Source of the DNA: an uncultured Candidatus Saccharibacteria bacterium
GTDB lineage: Bacteria; Patescibacteriota; Minisyncoccia; Phycocordibacterales; UBA9973
Direction: 5' to 3'
NCBI GenBank assembly: GCA_964474375.1
Contig: CAYYSG010000003.1
Location: 1 to 53,288, forward strand
DNA length: 53,288 nt
Numbering within the stretch: position 1 is the first letter of the stretch; each line of letters begins with the position of its first letter. This document shows, one piece after another, positions 722 to 53,288 of this stretch. A program made the position numbers and the translations under genes. Below the pieces are notes generated by a model. It made no database searches. It was not told the DNA's origin and worked only from the letters and a program-made list of their open reading frames with translations.

Positions 722-1031
722 TTACGACGCGGGGGACAGCGTCCGGATGGACGTTCTGTTCACGGACGCGGGCGGGACCCCAGCGGACCCGACGCTGGTC
801 GTCCTGAACATTGTCCCGCCGCCCCAGCGCTTCGCGGGCGTGCCTGGAACGGTCCAGTATACGTACGCATCCGGGTCCATCACGAAGGCCAGCGTCGGGT
901 CTTATTACTATGACATGATCCCGGTCCCGTCTGGGACGTACGGGTTCTGGACTTATTACTTCAGCGGAAGCGGGGACGTGAACGCGGTCTTCCAGGGGGC
1001 GTTCGGCGTTCGTCAGGGGGTAACACCATGA
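714..1031 (+). CDS. Small beta-sandwich (Ig-like) structural protein
   Basis: 105 aa, YDAGDSVRMDVLFTD...GSYYYD pattern. ATGA overlap with the next gene. Confidence 0.6.
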   Translation: MNNYDAGDSVRMDVLFTDAGGTPADPTLVVLNIVPPPQRFAGVPGTVQYTYASGSITKASVGSYYYDMIPVPSGTYGFWTYYFSGSGDVNAVFQGAFGVRQGVTP

Positions 1032-1615
1032 GCCGATACGTAACCTTGACCGAACTGAAGGCCCATATGGGGATCGACGGGACGACGGATGACGCCCTGC
1101 TTCAGATGAAACTGGACGACGCGGAAGGTATTATCGAAGCGGCGACCCGGCGACAGTTCGTCGGAACCGTGGGGACCGCGTTCATAAACCGCTGGGTCGC
1201 GGACGGGCGTATCACGCAAGGGAATAAGCTCTGGTTCCGCTCTGACCTGCTGAACGTCGACCAGGTTATTCTGGGGGACGGACAGGTCGTCCCCCAGGGG
1301 TCATACTGGTTAGAACCGAATGAAGGCCCGCCCTATCGCGCTATCCGTCTGAAAACGTCGTACGTCTTCACATGGAATACGGACGCGGACATGACAGTCG
1401 CCGGAACCTGGGGATTTAGCGTTCAGCCGCCGCCGTCCATCCGGGACGCGACCGTCCGCTTCGCCGCGCATCTGTACCGGGTCAAGGATGTCGGGCCGAT
1501 GGGGGACATGATCGGCGGGGAAGACGTTGGGGCGCAACCTGTCCAGCGGGGCATCCCGACCGACGTCATGGATATTATACGGCGCTATCGTAGCCGGTCC
1601 GGGGGCGCGGTCTAG
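1028..1615 (+). CDS. Head-tail connector (gp6/gp15-like adaptor)
   Basis: YVTLTELKAHMGIDGTTDDALL...AEGIIE...TRRQF N-terminus and a WGFS..PP.IRDAT...AAHLY C-terminal pattern. Confidence 0.85.
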   Translation: MSRYVTLTELKAHMGIDGTTDDALLQMKLDDAEGIIEAATRRQFVGTVGTAFINRWVADGRITQGNKLWFRSDLLNVDQVILGDGQVVPQGSYWLEPNEGPPYRAIRLKTSYVFTWNTDADMTVAGTWGFSVQPPPSIRDATVRFAAHLYRVKDVGPMGDMIGGEDVGAQPVQRGIPTDVMDIIRRYRSRSGGAV

Positions 1616-1631
1616 CATATCCGTTCGACCC

Positions 1632-1641
1632 ATGCTATACT
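1632..1641 (+). promoter_or_regulatory. Extended -10 promoter (TGnTATACT) upstream of the glycosyltransferase cassette
   Basis: ATGCTATACT; near-identical boxes at 6292-6301 and 46717-46726. Confidence 0.6.
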
Positions 1642-1758
1642 ACGGCCCAGACGACGGACCCGTGTTAGGGGAAGTGGGTCCCCCTGACTGGGATATACTG
1701 AAGACCGGGAAGTCCTTCCCCGCTCCGTCGTTTCAATCTTTTCGCCGTTCGTGTTGAG

Positions 1759-1803
1759 AACAGCGACCAGACGCCCCAGGCGGGCATCCGGTCGCTGTTT
1801 TTT
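1759..1803 (+). terminator. Intrinsic terminator in the leader
   Basis: Stem AACAGCGACC/GGTCGCTGTT followed by TTTTGTTGTTT. Confidence 0.7.
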
Positions 1804-1814
1804 GTTGTTTGTAC

Positions 1815-1882: not shown

Positions 1883-1918
1883 TTAATACCAGGCGGGGAC
1901 CTAGCGGGAGGTCAGAAC

Positions 1919-3172
1919 ATGCGTGTTCTTCTGGTATCGGACGCCCCCTGGACCAGTTCCGGGTACGGGGTCCAGGTCGGGATGATCGCCCGGATGATCC
2001 AGGACCTGGGTCATGACGTCGCCATCCTGGCATCCTTCGGTCTGATGGGGTCGCCCCAGTCCTGGAACGGCATCCCCGTCTTCCCAGGCGGCATGGACGG
2101 CTTCGCAAACGATCGCATCGGCCCCGTATCACGCGACTGGGCGGCGGACGTGACAATCACGCTGAAGGACCTATGGGTCTATAGTCCCCAGAACTGGGGA
2201 CCGGGCGTCCGTTGGGCTCCAATGGTCCCCGTTGATCATGACCCCATCCCCCCGGCCCATGCGAACCTGCTTCGCGCCGCCCCCGCCTTCGCCACAATTG
2301 CCTATGCTCCGTTCGGCGTTCGCAAGCTGAAGGAAGCCGGGTTCGCGCCCCTGTACGCTCCGCATTCGTATGACCCGAACGTGTATTTCCCGATCGACCG
2401 GGCGAAGGCCCGGACGGACCTGGTCGTCGAAGACCATACCGGGCGGCGCTTACACGTCAATCCGGACGTCTTCCTGGTCGGGGTCGTCGCGGTCAATCGG
2501 GGCGGCGTTCCCAGTCGGAAGGCATGGCCCCAGCTACTGGAAGGGTTCGCCCTGTACGCCCAGTCCCATCCGGACGCGGTCCTGTACTGCCATACCTGGA
2601 AGTGTACGGACGGGGCGGAACAGGGCGTCAACCTGGTCGCCCTTGCGGACCAGTTAGGCGTTCTGGACCGGGTCGTCTTCGCGCCCCAGGAACCATACCG
2701 ATCGGGGGCGCTTGCGGACCAGTACATGCGGACCGTGTATAACGCCCTGGACGTCCTTCAGGCGACGTCGATCGGGGAAGGGTTCGGGGTCCCGACCCTG
2801 GAAGCCCAGGCATGCGGGGTCCCGGTCGTCGCGGGCGACTGGGCCGCCCAGGAAGACCTGGTCTTCGCGGGCGTTCAGCTTCCGAAGGGGGACGCGCTAT
2901 CGTTCTACGATGGACAGGCGTCCCATGCCTTTATCCCCCATCCGAAGGCGGTCGCCGGGTCACTCGCGGCCATTACGGAACGGGTCAGGGCGGACCGGGA
3001 TACGCTGAAACGGAACGCCCTTGCGGGCGCGAACGTCTTCCAGATCGCCCAGGTTCGGCCCCTATGGGATGCCGTCCTGAAGTCGCTTCAGAACCAGATC
3101 GACCAGTACCCGTATCGCGGCGTCGTCCGGGTCGTCCCGGCATCCGCCGTCTTCCCGAAGGTGAGCGCATGA
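1919..3172 (+). CDS. Glycosyltransferase family 4 (GT-B)
   Basis: MRVLLVSDAPWTSSGYG N-terminus, VVAVNRGGVPSRK and ALDVLQATSIGEGFGVPTLEAQACGVPVV (EX7E motif). Confidence 0.92.
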   Translation: MRVLLVSDAPWTSSGYGVQVGMIARMIQDLGHDVAILASFGLMGSPQSWNGIPVFPGGMDGFANDRIGPVSRDWAADVTITLKDLWVYSPQNWGPGVRWAPMVPVDHDPIPPAHANLLRAAPAFATIAYAPFGVRKLKEAGFAPLYAPHSYDPNVYFPIDRAKARTDLVVEDHTGRRLHVNPDVFLVGVVAVNRGGVPSRKAWPQLLEGFALYAQSHPDAVLYCHTWKCTDGAEQGVNLVALADQLGVLDRVVFAPQEPYRSGALADQYMRTVYNALDVLQATSIGEGFGVPTLEAQACGVPVVAGDWAAQEDLVFAGVQLPKGDALSFYDGQASHAFIPHPKAVAGSLAAITERVRADRDTLKRNALAGANVFQIAQVRPLWDAVLKSLQNQIDQYPYRGVVRVVPASAVFPKVSA

Positions 3173-4359
3173 GTACAGTCATTATTACGCCCTGGAAGAA
3201 CGGGGTCGGGGCCCTTCTGGAAGACTATAGCAGGGCCGCTGACGGGGCGATCGTCGTTACTGTGGACAATGGATCGGATGCGGCGGACGCGGACGCCCTG
3301 AAGGCGTACACGGAGCCCAGGGGGGTCTATATCCGGAACGAACGGAACCTGGGCTTCGCCGCCGCGAATAACCAGGGCTTCGCGGGGCATACCTGGGAAC
3401 CGGAAGACGTTATCGTCTTCCTGAACAGTGACGTCGCCCCGACCGGGCCCTGGCTGGAACAGGCCCATCGGGATGTCCGGGACGGATACCTGTACGGCCC
3501 GTCCCTGGGTCAGCAGTTCGTCGGGGGCATGATGGTCCCGTACCTGGAAGGATGGTGTATTGCCGCGACGAAGGCGACCTGGGACCGGCTCATCCTGAAG
3601 GGACAGGCCGGTCCCTGGGACGCGGTCAAGTATCCGAAGCCATACTGGGAAGACAACGATCTAACCCTTCGGGCCCTGGACGCGGGGATCGGCCTGGTCC
3701 AGACGGCATGGATGATCGCCCATAAGGGCGGAGCGACGGCGGGGGCCCTGGTCAAGCATGCCCAGGGATACGAAGCGAACCGGGCGACCTTCGCCCGCCG
3801 CGTTCTTCGGGCTCTGGACGTGGGGAAGGCATGGCCGGATACGCCCATCCAGGCCGCGTACCAGTTCCACGCCCAGAACCCGTCCGACATCCAGCATCAT
3901 ATCCCGACCCTGTTCGGCGTCGCCCAGGGAAACATTGTCGAACTGGGAACCCGATCGGGCGTGTCGACGGCGGCCTTCCTGGCCGGGGTCGAAGGTCGCG
4001 GCGGGTTCGTGACCAGCGTCGACATTGACCCCCAGTCCGCCCAGGTGGCAAGAGGTCATCCGAACTGGGACTTCGTCCAGGGGGATACCACGGACCCGGT
4101 CGTCGTCGCGTCGGTCCAGGCCAGGGGGCCGATCGACCTGCTTCTGGTCGACACACTCCACAACGAAGACCATGTCGCCCGCGAACTTGCGCTCTGGTCG
4201 CCCCTGGTCCGTCCGGGCGGGCGGATATGCGTCCATGATACGGAAACGTTCCCAGGGGTCCGGACCGCCGTCGAACGCTTCGTCGAACAGAGCGGATGGA
4301 CCGCCGTGTACGTCCTTCCGGGGAACGGCATGGCTATTCTGGAAAGGCCGAACACATGA
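3169..4359 (+). CDS. GT2-like glycosyltransferase fused to a class I SAM methyltransferase (Methyltransf_24-like)
   Basis: VTVDNGS, RNERNLGFAAANNQG, VFLNSD and YWEDNDL in the N-terminal half; VELGTRSGVST, IDLLLVDTLH and GGRICVHDT in the C-terminal half. Start set at the ATGA overlap at 3169. Confidence 0.85.
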   Translation: MSTVIITPWKNGVGALLEDYSRAADGAIVVTVDNGSDAADADALKAYTEPRGVYIRNERNLGFAAANNQGFAGHTWEPEDVIVFLNSDVAPTGPWLEQAHRDVRDGYLYGPSLGQQFVGGMMVPYLEGWCIAATKATWDRLILKGQAGPWDAVKYPKPYWEDNDLTLRALDAGIGLVQTAWMIAHKGGATAGALVKHAQGYEANRATFARRVLRALDVGKAWPDTPIQAAYQFHAQNPSDIQHHIPTLFGVAQGNIVELGTRSGVSTAAFLAGVEGRGGFVTSVDIDPQSAQVARGHPNWDFVQGDTTDPVVVASVQARGPIDLLLVDTLHNEDHVARELALWSPLVRPGGRICVHDTETFPGVRTAVERFVEQSGWTAVYVLPGNGMAILERPNT

Positions 4360-4619
4360 CCAGACTGGACGAACTGAAGGACGACCTGGACCTGATCTGG
4401 ACCGCGTTTTCGACCTGGGCGGGCCGGTTCTGGGGGCGCTGGAAGGACTTTGTTCTTCTGTTCTTCGCGCTATTGTTTCTGTACGTATGTGGAACCGTCC
4501 TGGGGACGGTTCAACACGATCGCCAGAAGCTGGAACTGGTCCGTTTGTGCGTCGACGCATATCCGGACCGAACGATGGAACAGTGTCAATTCATCGTCGA
4601 AACGCGGATGGGTCCATGA
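4356..4619 (+). CDS. Small single-pass membrane protein
   Basis: FVLLFFALLFLYVCG hydrophobic stretch; ATGA-coupled on both sides. Confidence 0.7.
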   Translation: MTRLDELKDDLDLIWTAFSTWAGRFWGRWKDFVLLFFALLFLYVCGTVLGTVQHDRQKLELVRLCVDAYPDRTMEQCQFIVETRMGP

Positions 4620-5794
4620 TTTACGATTGCGTAACATACTTCCAGGAACCGGACCTTCTGGAACTTCGCATGCTAGAACTGGACGGATGGGTCGACCGCT
4701 TCGTCGTCGTCGAAGGGAACCGGACCCATGCGGGGGCTCCGCGAACGTCCAGCATCCCCCAGGCCCTTCGGGACCGCTGGGGGGACCGCCTGGTCACGGC
4801 CATGATCGACCTTCCCGAAGGGGACGGCCCGACCTGGACATGGCGGCGGGAGATGGGACAGCGGAACGGCATCCGGGACGTTCTTCGGGCCCTGGGCGCG
4901 GCCCCCGACGACATGGTCCTGGTATCGGACGTCGACGAACTTCCAAATCAGTTCTTCATGTCCATCCTGTCCCAGGTTCCCCCGGACGCGGTCGCGGTCG
5001 CCCATCAGCAGTTACATTATTACGACGTCAATCATGTCAGTCCGGGCGGATGGCGCGGAACCAGGGCGACCCAGTTCGCAAACCTGGACGTTCTGGGCGC
5101 GGACGGGGTCCGCTATGCCGGGACGGAGCGGGGCGGCTTTCCGCGCATCCTGGAAGTTCCCCATGCCGGATGGCATTTTAGCTACTTCGGGGGGCTCCGC
5201 CGCATCCAGACGAAGATAACGTCGTTCCTTCATCAGGAATTCAACCTTCCGGAACATGTCGACATGTCGACGATCCATAAGCGGGTCCAGGCCGGGGATG
5301 ACGTGTACGGACGCCCGGAACAGTCGTTCCGCGTCGGGCCGGTCGACTATCCGCTTCCGTTCGCCATGTACGCCCGTCCGGGGGCCTGGGGTCACTTCTT
5401 CTATCATCAGTACCGCCCGGACTTCTGGGCGACCCTGCCGCCCCGCCTGGACGCCCAGGCCGTCTTCGACGTCCAGTCGCGTATCGTGCATGACGCCCCG
5501 AAGGACCTTCCGATCGTAATCATCGGGGACGTCGGGGCCCGCCTGACGATCGCCGTCGCATCCGTCGCGGGCTCCCGCCCGGTAATGGTCGACGCGAAAT
5601 ACAAAGCGTCCCAGGCGAAGAAGACCCGCTGGAACATCCAGGCGTACGGCCTGGGGGACCGGGTTCAGATGCGCGGCCTTCCGACGTACCACGAAACGAT
5701 CGGAGCGCTCATCCTGGACGACGACGAAGGATACCCGACCCCGTATCTTCAGCGGCGACTGGACCCGACCGGCTTCGTCGTCAAGGTGAGGTAA
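4616..5794 (+). CDS. Glycosyltransferase family 17-like (beta-1,4-GlcNAc transferase/MGAT3 type) with a degenerate Rossmann-like C-terminal domain
   Basis: MIYDCVTYFQEPDLLELRMLELDGWVDRFVVVEGNRTHAG, REMGQRN, LVSDVDE and GWHFSYFGG motifs. Confidence 0.85.
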   Translation: MIYDCVTYFQEPDLLELRMLELDGWVDRFVVVEGNRTHAGAPRTSSIPQALRDRWGDRLVTAMIDLPEGDGPTWTWRREMGQRNGIRDVLRALGAAPDDMVLVSDVDELPNQFFMSILSQVPPDAVAVAHQQLHYYDVNHVSPGGWRGTRATQFANLDVLGADGVRYAGTERGGFPRILEVPHAGWHFSYFGGLRRIQTKITSFLHQEFNLPEHVDMSTIHKRVQAGDDVYGRPEQSFRVGPVDYPLPFAMYARPGAWGHFFYHQYRPDFWATLPPRLDAQAVFDVQSRIVHDAPKDLPIVIIGDVGARLTIAVASVAGSRPVMVDAKYKASQAKKTRWNIQAYGLGDRVQMRGLPTYHETIGALILDDDEGYPTPYLQRRLDPTGFVVKVR

Positions 5795-6291: not shown

Positions 6292-6301
6292 ATGCTATAA
6301 T
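6292..6301 (+). promoter_or_regulatory. Extended -10 promoter upstream of the tail tube gene
   Basis: ATGCTATAAT. Confidence 0.65.
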
Positions 6302-6331
6302 CCTTCCAGCATAACCGCGACCCGTGATGAG

Positions 6332-6360
6332 GGCCGCCCCAGACTGGGGCGGCCTATTTT
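6332..6360 (+). terminator. Intrinsic terminator in the tail leader
   Basis: GGCCGCCCCA-GAC-TGGGGCGGCC followed by TATTTTGTTGT. Confidence 0.7.
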
Positions 6361-6384
6361 GTTGTCAACAAAAGGGGAAAGAAC

Positions 6385-7446
6385 ATGGGCGGAAGGAAGG
6401 AACTTCGGAGCGTACGTCTGGGCCTGGAAACGACCCCAGGGACCCCGGTCGTCCCGCGTTACATCTATCGCGGCATGGCCGACATGCCGGAAGACATGCG
6501 GGAACCCCAGATCGTCGAAGAACTGGTCGGTATCTTCGGGGGGACGGACCGTTCGTACATCCCGAAGCTGGAAGGTAGTATCAAGCTGGGTCAGACGGAA
6601 CTGACCTTCGAACAGGCCCCGCTGTTCTTCGCGGCGGCGGGCATGGGTTCAGCCGGGGGATCGGCCCAGGGCGTCAGCGGGTCCGCCGTCGACTTCCAGT
6701 TCCCCATCCCGACGAACACCCTTCCGACGACCCAGGCGTTCACGATCGAAGCCGGGGATAACGTCGAAGCCGAACAGCTTACGTACGCGCTGGTCAACGA
6801 ACTGACGTTGACGTTCCAGGGCGACGAAGCGGTCAAGGTCGAAAGTACCTGGGTCGCCCGCTCCGTGGAACGTGCGAACGCGGTCGGGTCCTTCAGCGCG
6901 GTCGGGACCCTGGTATCCCCTGCTGAAGTCATCCTGTCCGGGAAGGGTTCCGTCTTCATGAACCCGGCTGTATCGGGGGCGACCTTCGGAGCAACACGGG
7001 GGACCCCTGGAAACATCCTGGGCGGCCAGATCAGCTTTAAGAACATGTGGACCCTGAAACATCCGATTGACAGCGGACAGCTTTACTTCAGCACGGCGGC
7101 GTACGTCGGATGCGAGATCGAAGGCGAATTGACGTACGAACATTGGAACGTCGGGTCGACCGGCGCGGCGGGCTCCGCTGGACAGAAACAGGCATGGCGG
7201 GACCAGGCCGCCCAGCTCATGGAACTTCGCTGGGCTGGCGGGACCATCCCGACCGGGACGACGTATCAGAACAAGCTGCTTGACATTAAGCTCCCGATCA
7301 AGTACACGAAGTTCGACCCGCTGGACGACCAGGAAGGAAACGGGATCGTAACTGCTTCGTTCGTCAGTCACTATAACGAAGACGTTCCAGCGGCGGGGCG
7401 CGGGACCATCCAGGTCGTTCGTCGCGGTCAACTGGAACACTTGTAA
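6385..7446 (+). CDS. Major tail (tube) protein
   Basis: LGLETTPGTPV N-terminus, FTIEAGD and DDQEGNGIVTASF; lies upstream of the chaperone and tape measure genes. Confidence 0.8.
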   Translation: MGGRKELRSVRLGLETTPGTPVVPRYIYRGMADMPEDMREPQIVEELVGIFGGTDRSYIPKLEGSIKLGQTELTFEQAPLFFAAAGMGSAGGSAQGVSGSAVDFQFPIPTNTLPTTQAFTIEAGDNVEAEQLTYALVNELTLTFQGDEAVKVESTWVARSVERANAVGSFSAVGTLVSPAEVILSGKGSVFMNPAVSGATFGATRGTPGNILGGQISFKNMWTLKHPIDSGQLYFSTAAYVGCEIEGELTYEHWNVGSTGAAGSAGQKQAWRDQAAQLMELRWAGGTIPTGTTYQNKLLDIKLPIKYTKFDPLDDQEGNGIVTASFVSHYNEDVPAAGRGTIQVVRRGQLEHL

Positions 7447-46726: not shown

Positions 46727-46824
46727 TCCGGGCAAGGGGATGAACGTCCCCGACCCAGGAAGAACAGGGGCGGTCACTTGATCCTTGCGCCGCCCCTGGA
46801 ACCTAATATCCGACCCGTGTTGAG

Positions 46825-46852
46825 GGCCGATCCCGGAAGGGGTCGGTTTTTT
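46825..46852 (+). terminator. Intrinsic terminator immediately before the protease gene
   Basis: GGCCGATCCC-GGAA-GGGGTCGGTT followed by TTTT. Confidence 0.7.
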
Positions 46853-46854
46853 CT

Positions 46855-49215
46855 ATGCCTGACCAGAACGCGCCGCCCCCAGGGGCCGATCAATCCGTCA
46901 AGCCGGGGTCCGGAAGCGGACCGGGCGGCAAAATGACACCGGCTGAACGGGCCCGCCATGCGTCCCTGGTCCGCTGGAAGAAGGAACAGCCCTTCGCGGC
47001 CCGACTGGCCGCCGCCCGCGAAGCCCGGAAGGCCGCGAAGAAGGGCGGCAAGGGGAAGGGGAAGGGCGGCGGGGCGAAGGAAACGCCCGACCAGAAGAAG
47101 GCGAAGGCCCAGGCGGAAGCAGCGAAGAACCGCGCCCAGGTCATGGCCGCGTTCAGTGGCGCGTATGACACGGACATCCTGAAGAACATGGAAGCCCTGG
47201 TCCGGGGGGACGACCTACCCGAAGACGGGGCGGACGACATGATCCGGTCTGGACTGGCGGAGCGGGTCGGACCGGACGGAACCCTGGTCCCGACCCCGGC
47301 GCTTCGTCAACTCTGGAACGCGGCATCCGATGGGGACCGGGGCAAGGCGAAGGAAATCATCGCACGGGCGGAAGACAGTTACGACCAGAAGGTCCAGAAG
47401 GACCAGGCGAAGGCCGAACGCGAAGCCGGACGTACGTCCGGCAAGAACGGAACCGAAGGCCGGGGTCTGGACAAGTCCGGGAACCCAGCGGACGCGATCG
47501 GGAAGAAGGGCGAAAACGCCCCCCAGGACGCGACAGGCGGGTCCGGGACGGGCCTGAAGGACAAGCTGAAGGGAATGATGGGGGAAGCCGGTTCCGGCGC
47601 GTCTGGGGCCGCCCAGGAAAAGAAGAAGGGCGGCGGGGGCGGCGGCGGGAAGGGGAAGGACGACAAACCGACCCCGGAACAAACCGCAGCGGACACCGCA
47701 TCCCAGACGACGGGCCGGTCCGCCGTGTCCGACCAGGATGTATCCGCCCTTCGGGACCTGTCCCAGGGCCGGACGGCGAAGAACACGGACCGCCTTCGGG
47801 CCCTGGGCTATATCGAAACGGACGACGACGGGAACGACGTCGCCACATCCGAAGGACGGCGGGCGCTGTCCGCCCTGGAACGCGGGGACCTGGGAGCATA
47901 CCAGGCCGCATATGAACAGGCCCGGTCGAAGAAGCGTTCAGCGGACCGGGCCCAGGTCGACCGGAACCAGCGGGGGAACGCCCAGGCCGAACAGGACGCG
48001 GAACGGCGGAACGCGATACGGCGGGCCGTGACCCGGAACCCGATCAAAGCGCACGAAGGAACAGACATGAGCTATGCGGACATCCTGGAAGCCCTGGACC
48101 CGCTCCCGGACCAGTTAGCAGACTACGCGGACCGCCTGGTCCAGGACGGAACGAAGGCCGGGGCGCGAAACAGCGCAGCGGACCAGGCCCTGATCAATGA
48201 AATTTACAACAAAGCGGAAGACCTGCTTCTGTTAGCGGAAGAACTGGGGGCCGAACTGGGCGTCGACCTGGGGGACGAAGACCAGGAAGAACCGGACGAC
48301 GACATGGACGACGACGCCATGAAGGCGCTGTCCTATGACCAGGCGTCCGAACAGGTCCGCTCCGCCTGGTATCAGGCCATGCGGTCGAACGGCCCGCCCA
48401 TGCTGGACGACGACGGTCCGGCCCGTATCTATCCGATCGCAATCTACCCGGACGCCCTGATTATTGAACAGGGCACGAAGAAGTACAAAGTCGGGTACAC
48501 GGTCCAGAACGGCGACTATACCTTCGCGGACCGCTCCGCCTGGGTCCAGGTCGAACCGGCCTGGGTCCCGGTTCAGGCCCCGCCGTCCGGCCTGGAAGCG
48601 GTCAAGGCCCTGAACGATACCGGGAAGGTCGGGGCGTACGCCATCCTGTTCGGGAGTGAAGATACCCCGGACCTGTCCCCGTTCCAGGACTTCTTCACAA
48701 AGAAGACCGACTTCTGGCTAGGGGAATGGTCGAAGCGGCCCATGCTGTTCCATCACGCAATGGACCCGGCGACGAAGGCCGCCCCTGTTATCGGGACCTG
48801 GAATAAGGCGGTCCTGGACGACGTCGGGGTCTGGATGGAAGGTCAACTGGACATGGCGCATAAGTATGCGTCCGCCGTCCAGCAACTGGTCACAATGGGG
48901 AAGCTCCGCGTGTCCAGTGATAGCGCCCCCCACCTGGTCGTCCGCGACCAGAAGCCGAACGGGACGAACGAAATCAAGCGCTGGCCGATCATGGCCGCGT
49001 CCTTGACCCCGACCCCAGCGGAACCGCGTTTACTCCCGGTCGAAGCGCTCAAGAGTGTGTTCAGCGCGGCGGGTCTTGACTTGCCGCTGGAACTTATGCA
49101 GACCCAGGACGCCCCCCAGGCGTCGACGAAGGCGGCCCAGGCCGCGAAGGTCGACCCTGAACACGAACGTCAACGTCTGCTTCTGGAACTGGATTTAATG
49201 GAACTGGAAGGCTAA
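46855..49215 (+). CDS. Prohead protease (HK97/S78-like) with a roughly 570-aa charged N-terminal extension
   Basis: C-terminal GAYAILFG...FFTKKTDF...LFHH...GVWMEGQL...SSDSAPHLV...SLTPTPAEPR. Confidence 0.85.
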   Translation: MPDQNAPPPGADQSVKPGSGSGPGGKMTPAERARHASLVRWKKEQPFAARLAAAREARKAAKKGGKGKGKGGGAKETPDQKKAKAQAEAAKNRAQVMAAFSGAYDTDILKNMEALVRGDDLPEDGADDMIRSGLAERVGPDGTLVPTPALRQLWNAASDGDRGKAKEIIARAEDSYDQKVQKDQAKAEREAGRTSGKNGTEGRGLDKSGNPADAIGKKGENAPQDATGGSGTGLKDKLKGMMGEAGSGASGAAQEKKKGGGGGGGKGKDDKPTPEQTAADTASQTTGRSAVSDQDVSALRDLSQGRTAKNTDRLRALGYIETDDDGNDVATSEGRRALSALERGDLGAYQAAYEQARSKKRSADRAQVDRNQRGNAQAEQDAERRNAIRRAVTRNPIKAHEGTDMSYADILEALDPLPDQLADYADRLVQDGTKAGARNSAADQALINEIYNKAEDLLLLAEELGAELGVDLGDEDQEEPDDDMDDDAMKALSYDQASEQVRSAWYQAMRSNGPPMLDDDGPARIYPIAIYPDALIIEQGTKKYKVGYTVQNGDYTFADRSAWVQVEPAWVPVQAPPSGLEAVKALNDTGKVGAYAILFGSEDTPDLSPFQDFFTKKTDFWLGEWSKRPMLFHHAMDPATKAAPVIGTWNKAVLDDVGVWMEGQLDMAHKYASAVQQLVTMGKLRVSSDSAPHLVVRDQKPNGTNEIKRWPIMAASLTPTPAEPRLLPVEALKSVFSAAGLDLPLELMQTQDAPQASTKAAQAAKVDPEHERQRLLLELDLMELEG

Positions 49216-49221
49216 AAACAC

Positions 49222-50604
49222 ATGACAGTAGCAGAACTGATCGCCCAGGCGAAGCAGAAGCTGGACGCGGGGGACCTGGACGGCGCGAAGGCGCTTCGTG
49301 ACCAGGCCGCCATGCTGAAGGACCTGGAAGCCCTGGAAACGCCCGCCCCCGCCCCGAAGGAAGAAGTCAAGCGTCTGGACTTCGGGAACCCGGCCCCCGT
49401 CGTCGAACAGTCGACCGCCGCGACGAAGGCGATCGAAGTCGCGTATGTGAAGAAGTTCGGGAACCTGGACGAAAGTGTCAATCAGGTCATGCGCGAACTG
49501 TACGGGACGGAAAGTTACGCTCTGATCCGCGCCGCGAAAATGGCGGACATGAACCGCTATCTTCGGACGAACACGTACGATCCCCGCTTCCAGAAGATGG
49601 TCCTGTTGACCCCGGACCAGGTCCTGGCGGCGATCATGACGGGCGTTCCCGTCGCGGACGGACAGTACACGATCAAAGCGACAATGGTCGAAGCCCAGGA
49701 CACCCTGGGCGGATACCTGGTCCCGGAAGAATACAACCAGGACATGGTCGAACGTCTTCCGGGCCTGACGGTCGTCCGCTCCCGTGCCAAGAAGTACAAC
49801 ACATCCCGCGATGCGCTGTCCTTCCTGGTTCGCACGGGCGGCGACAAGCGGCGTATCGGCGCGGTCCGGTCGAAAATGACCAGCGAGAACCCGACCGGAA
49901 CGTATAGCACGAACGCGACCTGGGGGAAGCTCGCCATCCCGGTCCATGTGAACCTGTCGAAGGTTCCGGTCACGAAGTCACTTCTGGAAGACGCGACTAT
50001 GAACATCATGTCGGATGTTCTTATGCCGGAATTCCAGACCGACCAGGCCATTCTGGAAGATCAGCAGTTCCTGTGTGGAAGCGGTTCCGACGAACCTCAG
50101 GGCATCCTGAAGCCTGACTTTACGGCCCCCTGGTCGCCCGATACCGTGACCCAGAACACGGGTTCCGCCGCCGCCGTCAACTTTGACGGCATGGTCGCGG
50201 CTCCGTTCAAGCTGGGAGCCCAGTACCGGGCGCGGAAAAACCCGAACGTCGCCTGGACGTTCAACGCGAACACGGCGGCCAGTATCGCGGCCCTGAAGGA
50301 CCTGGATGGCGCGTATTACTGGGCGGAAATCCGGGGGAATAACGCGGTCGGGAACCCGGACACCATCCGGGGATGGCAATACGCGGAAAGCGAAGCGCTT
50401 CCGAACGAAGCCGCGAACGTGTACGTCGGTATCTTCGGGGACTTCAGCGGATACCGCATCGTGGACCGCATCGGCATGAGCGTCGAACGCTATTCCGATA
50501 GCGCGACGGCGGATACCGACACGGTCGTCTTCTATTGCCGCCGCCGCTATGGCGGTCAGGTCGCGGAAGGCTGGAAGTTCGTCGGTCTGAAGTGTTCGAC
50601 CTAG
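49222..50604 (+). CDS. Major capsid protein (HK97 fold)
   Basis: Delta-domain-like N-terminus, GGYLVPEEY, IFGDFSGYRIVDRIG and RRRYGGQV. Confidence 0.95.
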   Translation: MTVAELIAQAKQKLDAGDLDGAKALRDQAAMLKDLEALETPAPAPKEEVKRLDFGNPAPVVEQSTAATKAIEVAYVKKFGNLDESVNQVMRELYGTESYALIRAAKMADMNRYLRTNTYDPRFQKMVLLTPDQVLAAIMTGVPVADGQYTIKATMVEAQDTLGGYLVPEEYNQDMVERLPGLTVVRSRAKKYNTSRDALSFLVRTGGDKRRIGAVRSKMTSENPTGTYSTNATWGKLAIPVHVNLSKVPVTKSLLEDATMNIMSDVLMPEFQTDQAILEDQQFLCGSGSDEPQGILKPDFTAPWSPDTVTQNTGSAAAVNFDGMVAAPFKLGAQYRARKNPNVAWTFNANTAASIAALKDLDGAYYWAEIRGNNAVGNPDTIRGWQYAESEALPNEAANVYVGIFGDFSGYRIVDRIGMSVERYSDSATADTDTVVFYCRRRYGGQVAEGWKFVGLKCST

Positions 50605-51866: not shown

Positions 51867-53288
51867 ATGGCCGACAATGTAACATTCCAGAATACCGTAA
51901 CCGCAACGCCCCCGACCGCGACGGTCGTCGCAACGGATGAGATCGGCGGCGTACACTTCCAGCGGGCGAAGATTGCGTTCGGGGAAGATGGGACCGCCTG
52001 GTCTGTATCAGACGGGACCCCGTTCCCTGTCCAGACGATCGGAACTGGACAGGTCCTGGGAACCGTCCAGGGCCTTCCAGGAAGCGTTCATATCGCGTCC
52101 CCTATTCCGGGCACGGTCCAGGCGCTGGGGACGTTCCAGGGCCTTCCAGGAAGCGTACACGTAGCGAACCAGGTCGACGCCCAGATCGTCGGGACCGTCC
52201 AGGCGCTGGGGACCCTTCAGCCGTTAGCAGGTTCCGTCCATGTGGCGAACCTGGCGCTGACGACCGGGACCGTCCAGGTCCGGGGAAGCGTTCAGCCGTT
52301 AGCGGGCTCCGTCCATCTTGCATCCGGCCTTCCGGGAACCGCCCAGGTCCTGGGAACCGTCGTCGTCATGCCGCTTCCGACTGGGGCTGGAACGCCCTTG
52401 ACGGTTCGACTATCGGACGGGGCGTCGTTCTATACCGCGTCCGGGGGCGCGGGCGGCGGCGGAGCATCCGCAACCGACCAGGCCGCCTTCAGCGCCGGGG
52501 TTCTGACGGTCGCCCCCATTGCGGGGGTCAGTACCATTACGGCGATCGGACAGGGAAGCGTCGGGGCCCTTGCGATGGACCAGTCCCGCGTCCTGTACGT
52601 CCGGGGGACCCTGGACGGCGGAACGGTTCAACCCCTTGCGGGCTCCGTGCATGTGGCGAACGTTCCCCAGGTCACGGTCGGGGGAACCGTCCAGGTTCTA
52701 GGAAGTGTCCAGGCGGTCGGAACCGCCCAGGTTCTAGGAACGGTCCAGGGGCTAGCGGGGTCCGTGCATGTAGCGAACCTGGCGCTGACGACCGGAACGG
52801 TCCAGGCGCTGGGGACCGTTCAACCGTTAGCGGGGTCGGTCCATGTGGCGAACCTGGCGCTGACGACCGGGACCGTCCAGGTCCGGGGAAGCGTTCAGCC
52901 GTTAGCGGGCTCCGTCCATCTTGCATCCGGCCTTCCGGGCACAGTCCAGACGCTGGGAACCATTGTCAATACCGGCTTCGGGTCCAGCGGGACCCCGACC
53001 GCCGCCGCCGAACAGTCCGCCGTCCGGTTCTGGGTCGACCTGAACGGTCGACAGGTCATCCGGGGAACGATCGACCAGGTCCTGGGAACCATCCAGGCAC
53101 TGGGAACCGTTCAGCCGTTAGCAGGTTCCGTGCATGTCGCAAATGTTCCCCAGGTCACGGTCGGGGGAACCGTCCAGGTTCTAGGAAGTGTCCAGGCGGT
53201 CGGAACCGCCCAGGTTCTAGGAACGGTCCAGGGGCTAGCGGGGTCCGTGCATGTAGCGAACCTGGCGCTGACGACCGGAACGGTCCAG
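51867..53288 (+). CDS. 5' part of a roughly 615-aa repeat-rich fibre-like protein, missing from the ORF track because it has no stop before the window end
   Basis: MADNVTFQ...TDEIGGVHFQRAKIAFGEDG, then many GTVQxLAGSVHVAN repeats. Open to 53288 and continues in frame at 56-481. Confidence 0.85.
   Translation, partial: MADNVTFQNTVTATPPTATVVATDEIGGVHFQRAKIAFGEDGTAWSVSDGTPFPVQTIGTGQVLGTVQGLPGSVHIASPIPGTVQALGTFQGLPGSVHVANQVDAQIVGTVQALGTLQPLAGSVHVANLALTTGTVQVRGSVQPLAGSVHLASGLPGTAQVLGTVVVMPLPTGAGTPLTVRLSDGASFYTASGGAGGGGASATDQAAFSAGVLTVAPIAGVSTITAIGQGSVGALAMDQSRVLYVRGTLDGGTVQPLAGSVHVANVPQVTVGGTVQVLGSVQAVGTAQVLGTVQGLAGSVHVANLALTTGTVQALGTVQPLAGSVHVANLALTTGTVQVRGSVQPLAGSVHLASGLPGTVQTLGTIVNTGFGSSGTPTAAAEQSAVRFWVDLNGRQVIRGTIDQVLGTIQALGTVQPLAGSVHVANVPQVTVGGTVQVLGSVQAVGTAQVLGTVQGLAGSVHVANLALTTGTVQ
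52662..52805 (+). repeat. 144-bp perfect direct repeat (second copy at 53145-53288)
   Basis: Base-by-base identity. A separate 101-bp perfect repeat lies at 52236-52336 and 52839-52939. Confidence 0.85.
53234..53288. repeat. Terminal overlap, identical to 1-55
   Basis: Direct comparison. Confidence 0.9.

Follow-up and report, generated by a model that had tools for sequence, protein, structure and literature searches.

What a phage would do with three glycosyltransferases lodged between its neck and tail genes is the question raised by a stretch of DNA of 53,288 nucleotides (hereafter the window; contig CAYYSG010000003.1 of assembly GCA_964474375.1, deposited as an uncultured Candidatus Saccharibacteria bacterium). 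The window carries a cassette of four co-oriented genes, g1 to g4, at positions 1919-5794. Virion glycosylation is reportedly thought by Freeman et al. to be rare outside mycobacteriophages. We propose, with a probability of roughly 0.5, that the cassette coats the virion with a methylated glycan and that the acceptor is a structural protein of the phage. This reading is favored because of the position of the cassette in the virion operon, the leader it shares with structural genes, its co-divergence with those genes in phages of presumably different hosts, the lack of membrane or export components in our scans, and the precedents of mycobacteriophage Corndog and the chloroviruses.

The first-pass annotation of this DNA, made from the letters alone, had described four ATGA-coupled genes for a GT4 enzyme, a GT2 enzyme fused to a methyltransferase, a membrane peptide and a GT17 enzyme, placed between a head-tail connector and a tail terminator. 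Gene content and placement were both borne out. Open reading frame (ORF) listing, sequence reading and translation placed the three ATGA start/stop overlaps at 3169, 4356 and 4616; the Pfam calls for g1, g2 and g4 all exceeded gathering scores, and the flanking genes encode an adaptor and a protein of terminator fold (Table 1). Three further ATGA overlaps occur among the head genes, indicating that the coupling is real but not peculiar to the cassette. The AlphaFold2 model of the terminator-fold protein (predicted local distance difference test, pLDDT, 80) had tail terminators as its best matches: those of R4C, T5 (p142) and lambda (gpU), with TM-scores of 0.45-0.56 and a probability of ~0.99 but E-values of just 1e-3 to 1e-2, and that of T1. 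Homologues of this protein come after the cassette in all relatives.

The product of g1 matched Glyco_trans_1_4 and Glycos_transf_1 at 41.8 and 34.3 bits (cut-offs 27 and 26.4) and contains the EX7E motif (EGFGVPTLE); its named matches, of the MshA/MSMEG_0565 kind, were weak. A defense-system reading through the PF20706 "GT4-conflict" family was dropped, as the score was 14.5 bits against a cut-off of 26. In g2, the Methyltransf_24/RMNT_CmcI match spans residues 236-359 and the methyltransferase motifs VELGTRSGVST, SVDID and LLLVDTLH are present; the match to the rhamnosyl O-methyltransferase family NF045824 was weak and under its cut-off. More than 120 full-length homologues of g2, mostly on phage-sized contigs, share its PF00535 + PF13578 architecture at 45-63% identity. 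The GT4, GT2, g2 methyltransferase and GT17 domains all retain their catalytic motifs, and no transmembrane segment was found in the three enzymes. Nothing in NCBIfam came close to an equivalog cut-off, the best named matches (MshA, EpsE, EpsD and a rhamnosyltransferase) all being weak, and a PDB sequence search returned weak MshA-like and O-methyltransferase matches and none for GT17 or the terminator. Three soluble glycosyltransferase families accompanied by a methyltransferase domain of sugar-O-methylating type support, as a prediction from sequence, the earlier inference of a multi-sugar, O-methylating pathway.

The control signals ahead of the cassette tie it to the virion genes. The promoter-like motif ATGCTATAMT has exactly three matches in the genome (1632, 6292 and 46717) versus 0 expected by chance, and each is followed by a CGTGWTGAG box adjoining a GC-rich, U-tailed hairpin (1750-1811, 6323-6365 and 46816-46854). 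One leader stands before the glycosyltransferase cassette, one before the tail-tube gene and one before the protease/capsid operon, and the claim of a late-type leader before the cassette is upheld by this threefold promoter-box-terminator architecture. The minimum free energy fold of the leader at 1750-1811 (z = -4.25) includes the long hairpin, whose inner stem was detected by a terminator scan. The cassette and the terminator gene form one unit with the control signals of the two most abundant virion proteins, and because the leaders are shared, the timing of the cassette is predicted to be late. In a small hairpin at 1664-1688 (TAGGGGA...TCCCCCTGA), the window and contig L003 differ by a compensatory change from A-T to G-C, which suggests a conserved RNA structure between promoter and terminator.

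The same enzyme set recurs in the same slot of other phages. GT4, GT2 and GT17 domains, with one to three Methyltransf_24 domains either fused or free, were found in at least 10 diverged phage contigs (L003, L002/L087, L008/L088, L009/L094, L010, L011/L093, L016, L092 in part, L140, L141 and L142) in the shared order adaptor, GT4, GT2(/methyltransferase), GT17(/methyltransferase), terminator, tube, tape measure and Dit. The enzymes of L003 are 95-98% identical to those of the window at the protein level. The Logan run SRR14194050 also contains a 98% identical phage. Identity to the window declines in parallel for the enzymes (36-57%), the adaptor (43-53%) and the tube (42-63%), and the GC content of the contigs measured, all except L141 and L142, ranges from 0.55 to 0.66. 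Since enzyme identity falls in step with that of the adaptor and tube, the comparison indicates that the cassette is vertically co-inherited with the structural module and not tuned to a host. Methyltransferase content varies: L009, L010 and L011 carry free-standing Methyltransf_24 genes, fusion to the GT2 and/or GT17 domain is the arrangement in the other cassettes, L141 and L142 have three units each, and the window and L016 have a single live domain.

This pattern bears on an alternative in which the enzymes act late on an envelope glycan of the host (a cell-wall polysaccharide, an S-layer glycan or a lipid-linked intermediate), masking receptors on debris or neighboring cells and thereby saving progeny or blocking superinfection. 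Envelope polysaccharides are typically made by enzymes of the GT4 and GT2 families, the best named matches given above, weak as they are, are of that kind, and the cassette of this phage does include a small membrane peptide. The first-pass annotation, too, had allowed for the host surface as target. However, an enzyme set that is kept across such a range of GC content and that co-diverges with structural proteins is unexpected for host-specific glycans, and the cassette shares its location and its regulation with virion genes. The enzymes themselves have no membrane segments, the membrane peptide is not conserved, and Pfam scans of ~50 larger ORFs found no flippase, polymerase, initiating phosphoglycosyltransferase or oligosaccharyltransferase. 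Temperate-phage Gtr/O-antigen modules consist of membrane proteins of GtrA/GtrB/GtrV type that are encoded beside the integrase and expressed from the prophage; the cassette enzymes are soluble and belong to a late virion operon, no Gtr-type component was found, and scans of the window ORFs found no integrase or lysogeny module. We regard envelope remodeling as unlikely.

Where the cassette is missing, the slot closes cleanly. In contig L096, whose tube protein is 41% identical to that of the window, the adaptor homologue directly adjoins the terminator homologue, which implies that the cassette is an accessory insertion at this point. Contig L095 has a 209-amino-acid ORF without an adaptor match before its terminator homologue, and no glycosyltransferase in the 2.3 kb available. 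In L140, L141 and L142, which are larger relatives, HNH endonuclease genes and numerous short ORFs of unrelated kinds are scattered among the glycosyltransferase genes, so that the slot appears to be an insertion hot spot.

Selection was assessed from synonymous and nonsynonymous codon differences between the window and L003. The counts (synonymous/nonsynonymous) were 36/17 for GT4, 19/19 for GT2-methyltransferase and 21/9 for GT17, compared to 19/1 for the adaptor, 2/0 for the terminator, 16/0 for the tube, 46/3 for the tape measure and 28/6 for Dit. Nonsynonymous changes are well under the neutral expectation, pointing to purifying selection on all four cassette genes and to enzymes that are functional, and at the protein level the enzymes have changed far faster than the adjoining structural proteins. 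Such rapid change would also fit an acceptor elsewhere in the cytoplasm, whether a non-structural phage protein, a host protein modified during takeover or a small molecule: the enzymes differ at 17, 19 and 9 nonsynonymous codons versus 0-6 in the neighboring structural genes, and the capsid and tube yielded no target motif. Against this explanation speak the shared late leader and the neck/tail slot, which is fixed in at least 10 phages, as well as the habit of host-takeover genes, which are normally expressed early from regions outside the structural genes. We consider an acceptor of this kind somewhat more doubtful than an envelope glycan.

Assignment of g4 to GT17 was correct as far as it went. 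The Pfam match, the DXD motif and the predicted GT-A fold all agree, but g4 is not a GT17 enzyme alone, as a degenerate domain of methyltransferase fold is also present. Its nearest relatives are ~445 amino acids long with PF04724 + PF13578 architecture at 38-58% identity. In an alignment of 18 sequences, g4 retains every GT17-invariant residue, including the DXD motif (D105-V-D107), and shares more than 40 invariant columns with its 17 relatives. The C-terminal 120 residues of g4 align to the Methyltransf_24 domain of these relatives, with ~50 residues deleted and the motifs VEIGxWEGxST, DTWxGN, HLDAxHD and GDDY replaced or lost; the domain is without the S-adenosylmethionine (SAM)-binding motif I, the acidic motif II and the metal/catalytic motif of active class-I SAM methyltransferases. 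Structure prediction, which had been suggested earlier, recovered the same two parts: the AlphaFold model (pLDDT 84.6) has a confident GT-A N-terminal domain (>90) that finds GT-A enzymes by Foldseek and a lower-confidence Rossmann-type C-terminal domain that finds the class-I O-methyltransferases 3dul and 6jcl (Rv0187). Eight of the nine amino-acid changes relative to the 98% identical L003 protein fall within residues 259-392, a cluster that fits relaxed constraint on the methyltransferase remnant. GT17 genes are common in uncultured viral contigs, with at least 532 GT17-encoding stretches in IMG/VR, although g4 matches just 9 of 50,697 deposited phage records.

The small membrane anchor that the first-pass annotation had counted as part of the system did not hold up. 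No homologue of g3 was found among 1.84 billion (1.84e9) representative proteins, and the gene is present in the window and L003 alone; the equivalent slots of other cassettes contain unrelated non-membrane small ORFs or HNH genes, or are empty. Because the five synonymous changes relative to L003 are accompanied by one nonsynonymous change, the comparison suggests that g3 is translated. On this distribution, g3 is best described as a lineage-specific accessory ORFan outside the cassette core.

In the virion glycosylation model, the three soluble glycosyltransferases (GT4, GT2 and GT17) would add sugars sequentially in the cytoplasm from host nucleotide-sugars, the GT17 step being carried out by an inverting GT-A enzyme, and the Methyltransf_24/CmcI-type domain of g2 would O-methylate the glycan. 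The second methyltransferase domain, that of g4, is degenerate in this phage, and g3 would be dispensable. GT4-fold enzymes can initiate cytoplasmic protein O-glycosylation, as do GtfA/GtfB of serine-rich adhesins, and given this precedent g1 is, by analogy, a reasonable candidate for the initiating enzyme. With neither transmembrane segments nor a flippase or oligosaccharyltransferase detected, the system fits direct glycosylation of a soluble acceptor in the cytoplasm. The likeliest acceptor would be at least one co-produced structural protein (capsid, tail tube or another virion protein), and the particle would be released already coated with a methylated glycan, in the manner of Corndog, Che8, Myrna and the chloroviruses. 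The virion as target, the sequential action of the enzymes and the O-methylation of a sugar are the points that we infer.

Several observations weigh against this model. Sequence comparison found in the capsid and tube no cassette-specific C-terminal extension or Ser/Thr tract that would mark an acceptor, and the enzymes show no homology in sequence to those proven in mycobacteriophages. Lipid-linked compounds and small molecules also serve GT4 and GT2 enzymes as acceptors, the literature searched contained no description of a GT17 activity from a bacterium or phage, and the predicted late timing is read from sequence motifs. A Thr/Val/Gly-rich, fiber-like protein of 616 amino acids was considered as an acceptor and set aside, as it is missing from several cassette-bearing relatives. 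The tube protein of the cassette clade does have a C-terminal extension of 5-9 residues, which is not Ser/Thr-rich in this phage. Conserved Gly/Ser-rich loops are present in the tube of the cassette clade at residues 88-101 and 256-266 (GSAGGSAQGVSGSA; GSTGAAGSAGQ). Neither the extension nor the loops are diagnostic. The loops and the extension are missing from more distant relatives that lack the cassette and are present in L095.

A further possibility, that the cassette hypermodifies phage DNA by glycosylating and methylating hydroxymethylated bases as a protection from restriction, is very improbable. GT-A and GT-B enzymes of other phages do glycosylate DNA (Pyle et al. 2024, in the account cited in PMC12619734), and phrog_2675, annotated as a DNA methyltransferase, weakly matches the g2 methyltransferase domain. 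This domain is, however, of the sugar/small-molecule O-methyltransferase type (PF13578/PF04989; folds 3dul and 6jcl), and the cassette lies within the virion operon, far from the replication module. Among ~50 ORFs scanned with Pfam and PHROGs, no gene for hydroxymethylated or hypermodified bases (thymidylate-synthase/hydroxymethylase-like or DNA kinase) was found, a result that amounts to no more than absence of evidence; the sole genes of related kind were those of two ordinary DNA methyltransferases.

Phage virion glycosylation has been demonstrated experimentally, according to the literature searched, for a few mycobacteriophages alone, and the genes are described for Corndog, Che8 and Myrna (Freeman et al. 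2023, to the extent relayed in PMC11600133, PMC12363180 and PMC4351075). Corndog (cluster O) gp35-38 offer the nearest arrangement: like the cassette, they combine a Methyltransf_24/TylF-type O-methyltransferase with soluble glycosyltransferases in tandem, co-oriented genes within a siphovirus virion operon, and lack both membrane machinery and genes for making sugar nucleotides. The differences are considerable. Corndog encodes GT2-like and GT25-like enzymes (gp38 being GT25-like) and no GT4 or GT17, in contrast to the GT4, GT2 and GT17 of the cassette; its genes lie between portal and protease instead of adaptor and terminator; its methyltransferase is not fused to a glycosyltransferase, as the methyltransferase domains of the cassette are; and the host of the window phage is, unlike that of Corndog, not actinobacterial as far as can be told. 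By blastp against Corndog gp35-38, no homology of the cassette to the essential mycobacteriophage glycosyltransferases (the Che8 gp110/Corndog gp38 cluster) was found. The mycobacteriophage system places O-glycans on the C-terminal segments of its capsid and tube subunits; no extension was found on the window capsid. Because no significant similarity was detected between gp35-38 and the cassette proteins (blastp E > 0.07), the two sets are taken to be analogous and not orthologous.

Parallels in enzyme family come from other viruses. Chloroviruses glycosylate the Vp54 capsid protein with A064R, which joins two glycosyltransferase domains and a methyltransferase, with the GT4-type A546L/B736L and, in some chloroviruses, with GT17 enzymes (PMC5408694). 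They share with the proposed model a virus-encoded cytoplasmic capsid glycosylation, a glycosyltransferase-methyltransferase fusion and GT4-type and GT17 members, a likeness at the level of families; they differ in being giant eukaryotic viruses with atypical N-linked glycans and dispersed genes. Cultured cyanomyoviruses (for example Synechococcus phages RB11-B and S-B05) resemble the cassette in having an annotated GT17 beside methyltransferase and GT2 genes, but there the genes belong to large islands that bring their own sugar-nucleotide synthesis, within myovirus genomes of 200 kb. In the Gordonia phage GMA2 (L148), Orf4 (3971-4774), annotated as hypothetical, is GT17-like (25% identity, E 1e-4) and lies between terminase/Orf2 and the structural proteins. 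Identity to the GT17 domain of g4 is merely 24-25% for the cyanophages and GMA2. Eukaryotic MGAT3 (GnT-III), the founding GT17 enzyme, has PF04724, a DXD motif and a GT-A fold like g4, but resides in the Golgi as a type II membrane protein and modifies the cores of N-glycans; g4 is a soluble phage product with a methyltransferase remnant fused to its GT17 domain. To our knowledge, the sole characterized GT17 activity is beta-1,4-GlcNAc transfer to a mannose acceptor. The combination of enzymes has more precedent than the first-pass annotation supposed, given the chlorovirus GT17, GT4 and glycosyltransferase-methyltransferase genes, the cyanophage GT17, methyltransferase and GT2 clusters and the abundance of GT17 in IMG/VR.

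The window makes up the whole of contig C3 in a 727-kb bin of 34 contigs and is a complete circular siphovirus genome of ~53 kb with 63.6% GC. An exact direct repeat of 55 bp at its two ends (1-55 and 53234-53288) indicates a closed circular assembly and a complete phage genome; the ORF of the 616-amino-acid protein runs from 51867 over the junction to 481. Since the bulk of the bin has ~37% GC and the tetranucleotide correlation between window and bin is -0.34, the window is a mis-binned phage genome that does not belong to the small-genome bacterium of the bin, and by the same measures the binned organism was rejected as host. Contigs C3, C4, C9, C16, C27 and C28 have 55-65% GC and the remaining 28 contigs 35-40%; these six composition outliers are likely contamination of the bin. 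Correlation of the other high-GC contigs with the window is merely 0.2-0.6, and C9 shows weak tape-measure and portal similarity to it. By Pfam and PHROGs, the virion genes of the window encode terminase, portal, S78 protease, HK97 capsid, gp6-like adaptor, tape measure and Dit-like and Gp37-like tail proteins, and further genes encode DnaB, a beta-clamp, two DNA methyltransferases and an amidase/glucosaminidase endolysin. The protease gene (46855-49215) encodes 786 amino acids, of which the S78 prohead protease match covers only residues 588-688, and between 47001 and 48000 the AT skew reaches 0.50 at 68% GC. These values point to a long N-terminal region of odd composition, perhaps a scaffold or decoration fusion.

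The description of the window as a probable Chloroflexota phage fits its relatives better than the window itself. L140 is a 57.8-kb cassette-bearing contig in a Herpetosiphonaceae metagenome-assembled genome, with tetranucleotide correlations of 0.94-0.96 to the other contigs of that genome; for the window the correlation with the same genome is just 0.41-0.50. A GTDB-wide scan gave two distant matches alone, one of them a genuine integrated prophage without the cassette (tube 36-38% identical) on an 85-kb Chloroflexales contig. A Chloroflexota host is plausible for the relatives and the clade. When 200 genomes from the class to which the Herpetosiphonaceae genome belongs were searched for prophages by means of the tube protein, no further matches appeared, and the phage beta-clamp was uninformative about the host, with <=31% identity to anything. 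The Chloroflexales prophage (L138/L143-L145, contig C67 of G001), with distantly related tube, tape measure and Dit proteins, adjoins a polysaccharide-biosynthesis locus and a serine recombinase, on a contig that also holds ABC-transporter genes and a resolvase.

Table 1. Features of the cassette, its flanks and the three leaders, with coordinates in the window.
Feature	Coordinates	Strand	Evidence or remark
Head-tail adaptor (gp6-like connector)	1028..1615	+	phrog_442 E 7e-20, PF05135 E 8e-8; upstream edge of cassette slot
Promoter-like box ATGCTATACT (extended -10 type)	1632..1641	+	One of three genome copies; conserved in L003
Leader box CGTGTTGAG with intrinsic-terminator hairpin and U-tract	1750..1811	+	Arms 1759-1768 / 1790-1799
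Shine-Dalgarno GGGAGG for g1	1906..1911	+	Sequence
g1, GT4-type glycosyltransferase (GT-B, retaining), soluble, 417 aa	1919..3172	+	PF13692, PF00534; phrog_2170
g2, GT2-methyltransferase fusion, 396 aa	3169-4359	+	Pfam
g2 N-terminal domain, GT2 (GT-A, inverting)	3169..3843	+	PF00535 35.4 bits (cut-off 23.3), residues 29-99
g2 C-terminal domain, intact Methyltransf_24/CmcI/rhamnosyl-O-methyltransferase-type SAM methyltransferase	3874..4359	+	PF13578 E 2e-17, PF04989 E 7e-10
g3, single-pass membrane peptide, 87 aa	4356..4619	+	One hydrophobic helix, Kyte-Doolittle 2.53, residues 32-50; no Pfam family
g4, GT17 protein, 392 aa	4616-5794	+	Pfam, AlphaFold
g4 N-terminal domain, GT17 (GT-A fold)	4616..5401	+	PF04724 E 4e-20, 72.7 bits (cut-off 26), residues 2-232
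g4 C-terminal domain, degenerate shortened methyltransferase-fold remnant	5453..5794	+	Alignment, Foldseek; no Pfam match
Tail terminator-fold protein, 159 aa	5798..6277	+	AlphaFold/Foldseek; 3 nt past g4, within the same leader-bounded unit
Second late leader, ATGCTATAAT, CGTGATGAG and terminator hairpin	6292..6365	+	Ahead of tail-tube gene
Major tail (tube) protein	6385..7446	+	phrog_290; 42-63% identical in cassette-bearing relatives; candidate acceptor
Third leader, promoter-like box; box and hairpin	46717; 46816-46854		Ahead of protease/capsid operon
HK97-fold major capsid protein	49222..50604	+	PF05065 E 3e-43; candidate acceptor

Taken together, the data raise the tentative possibility, which we hold at somewhat below even odds, that a large uncultured siphovirus clade, with at least one member associated with Herpetosiphonaceae (Chloroflexota), routinely coats its virions with an O-methylated oligosaccharide by means of a vertically inherited GT4-GT2-GT17 and Methyltransf_24 module. 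The number of active methyltransferase domains (1-3), altered by fusion, fission and decay, and the fast-changing enzyme surfaces would diversify the glycan among close relatives. We know of no described activity for bacterial or viral GT17 enzymes, and the cassette would provide them with a biological setting; if the proposal is true, this would be the first function of GT17 in a prokaryotic virus. The defined system of three glycosyltransferases and one methyltransferase would be suited to heterologous reconstitution, relatives that differ in how many of their methyltransferase domains are live offer a natural series for connecting genes with glycan structure, and GMA2, a cultured actinophage, is a tractable system in which a phage GT17 could be tested. 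The phenomenon would be broadened by an enzyme set that is conserved, yet not orthologous to the known ones, in an unrelated family of environmental phages, and virion glycosylation would then be widespread beyond the actinobacteriophages.

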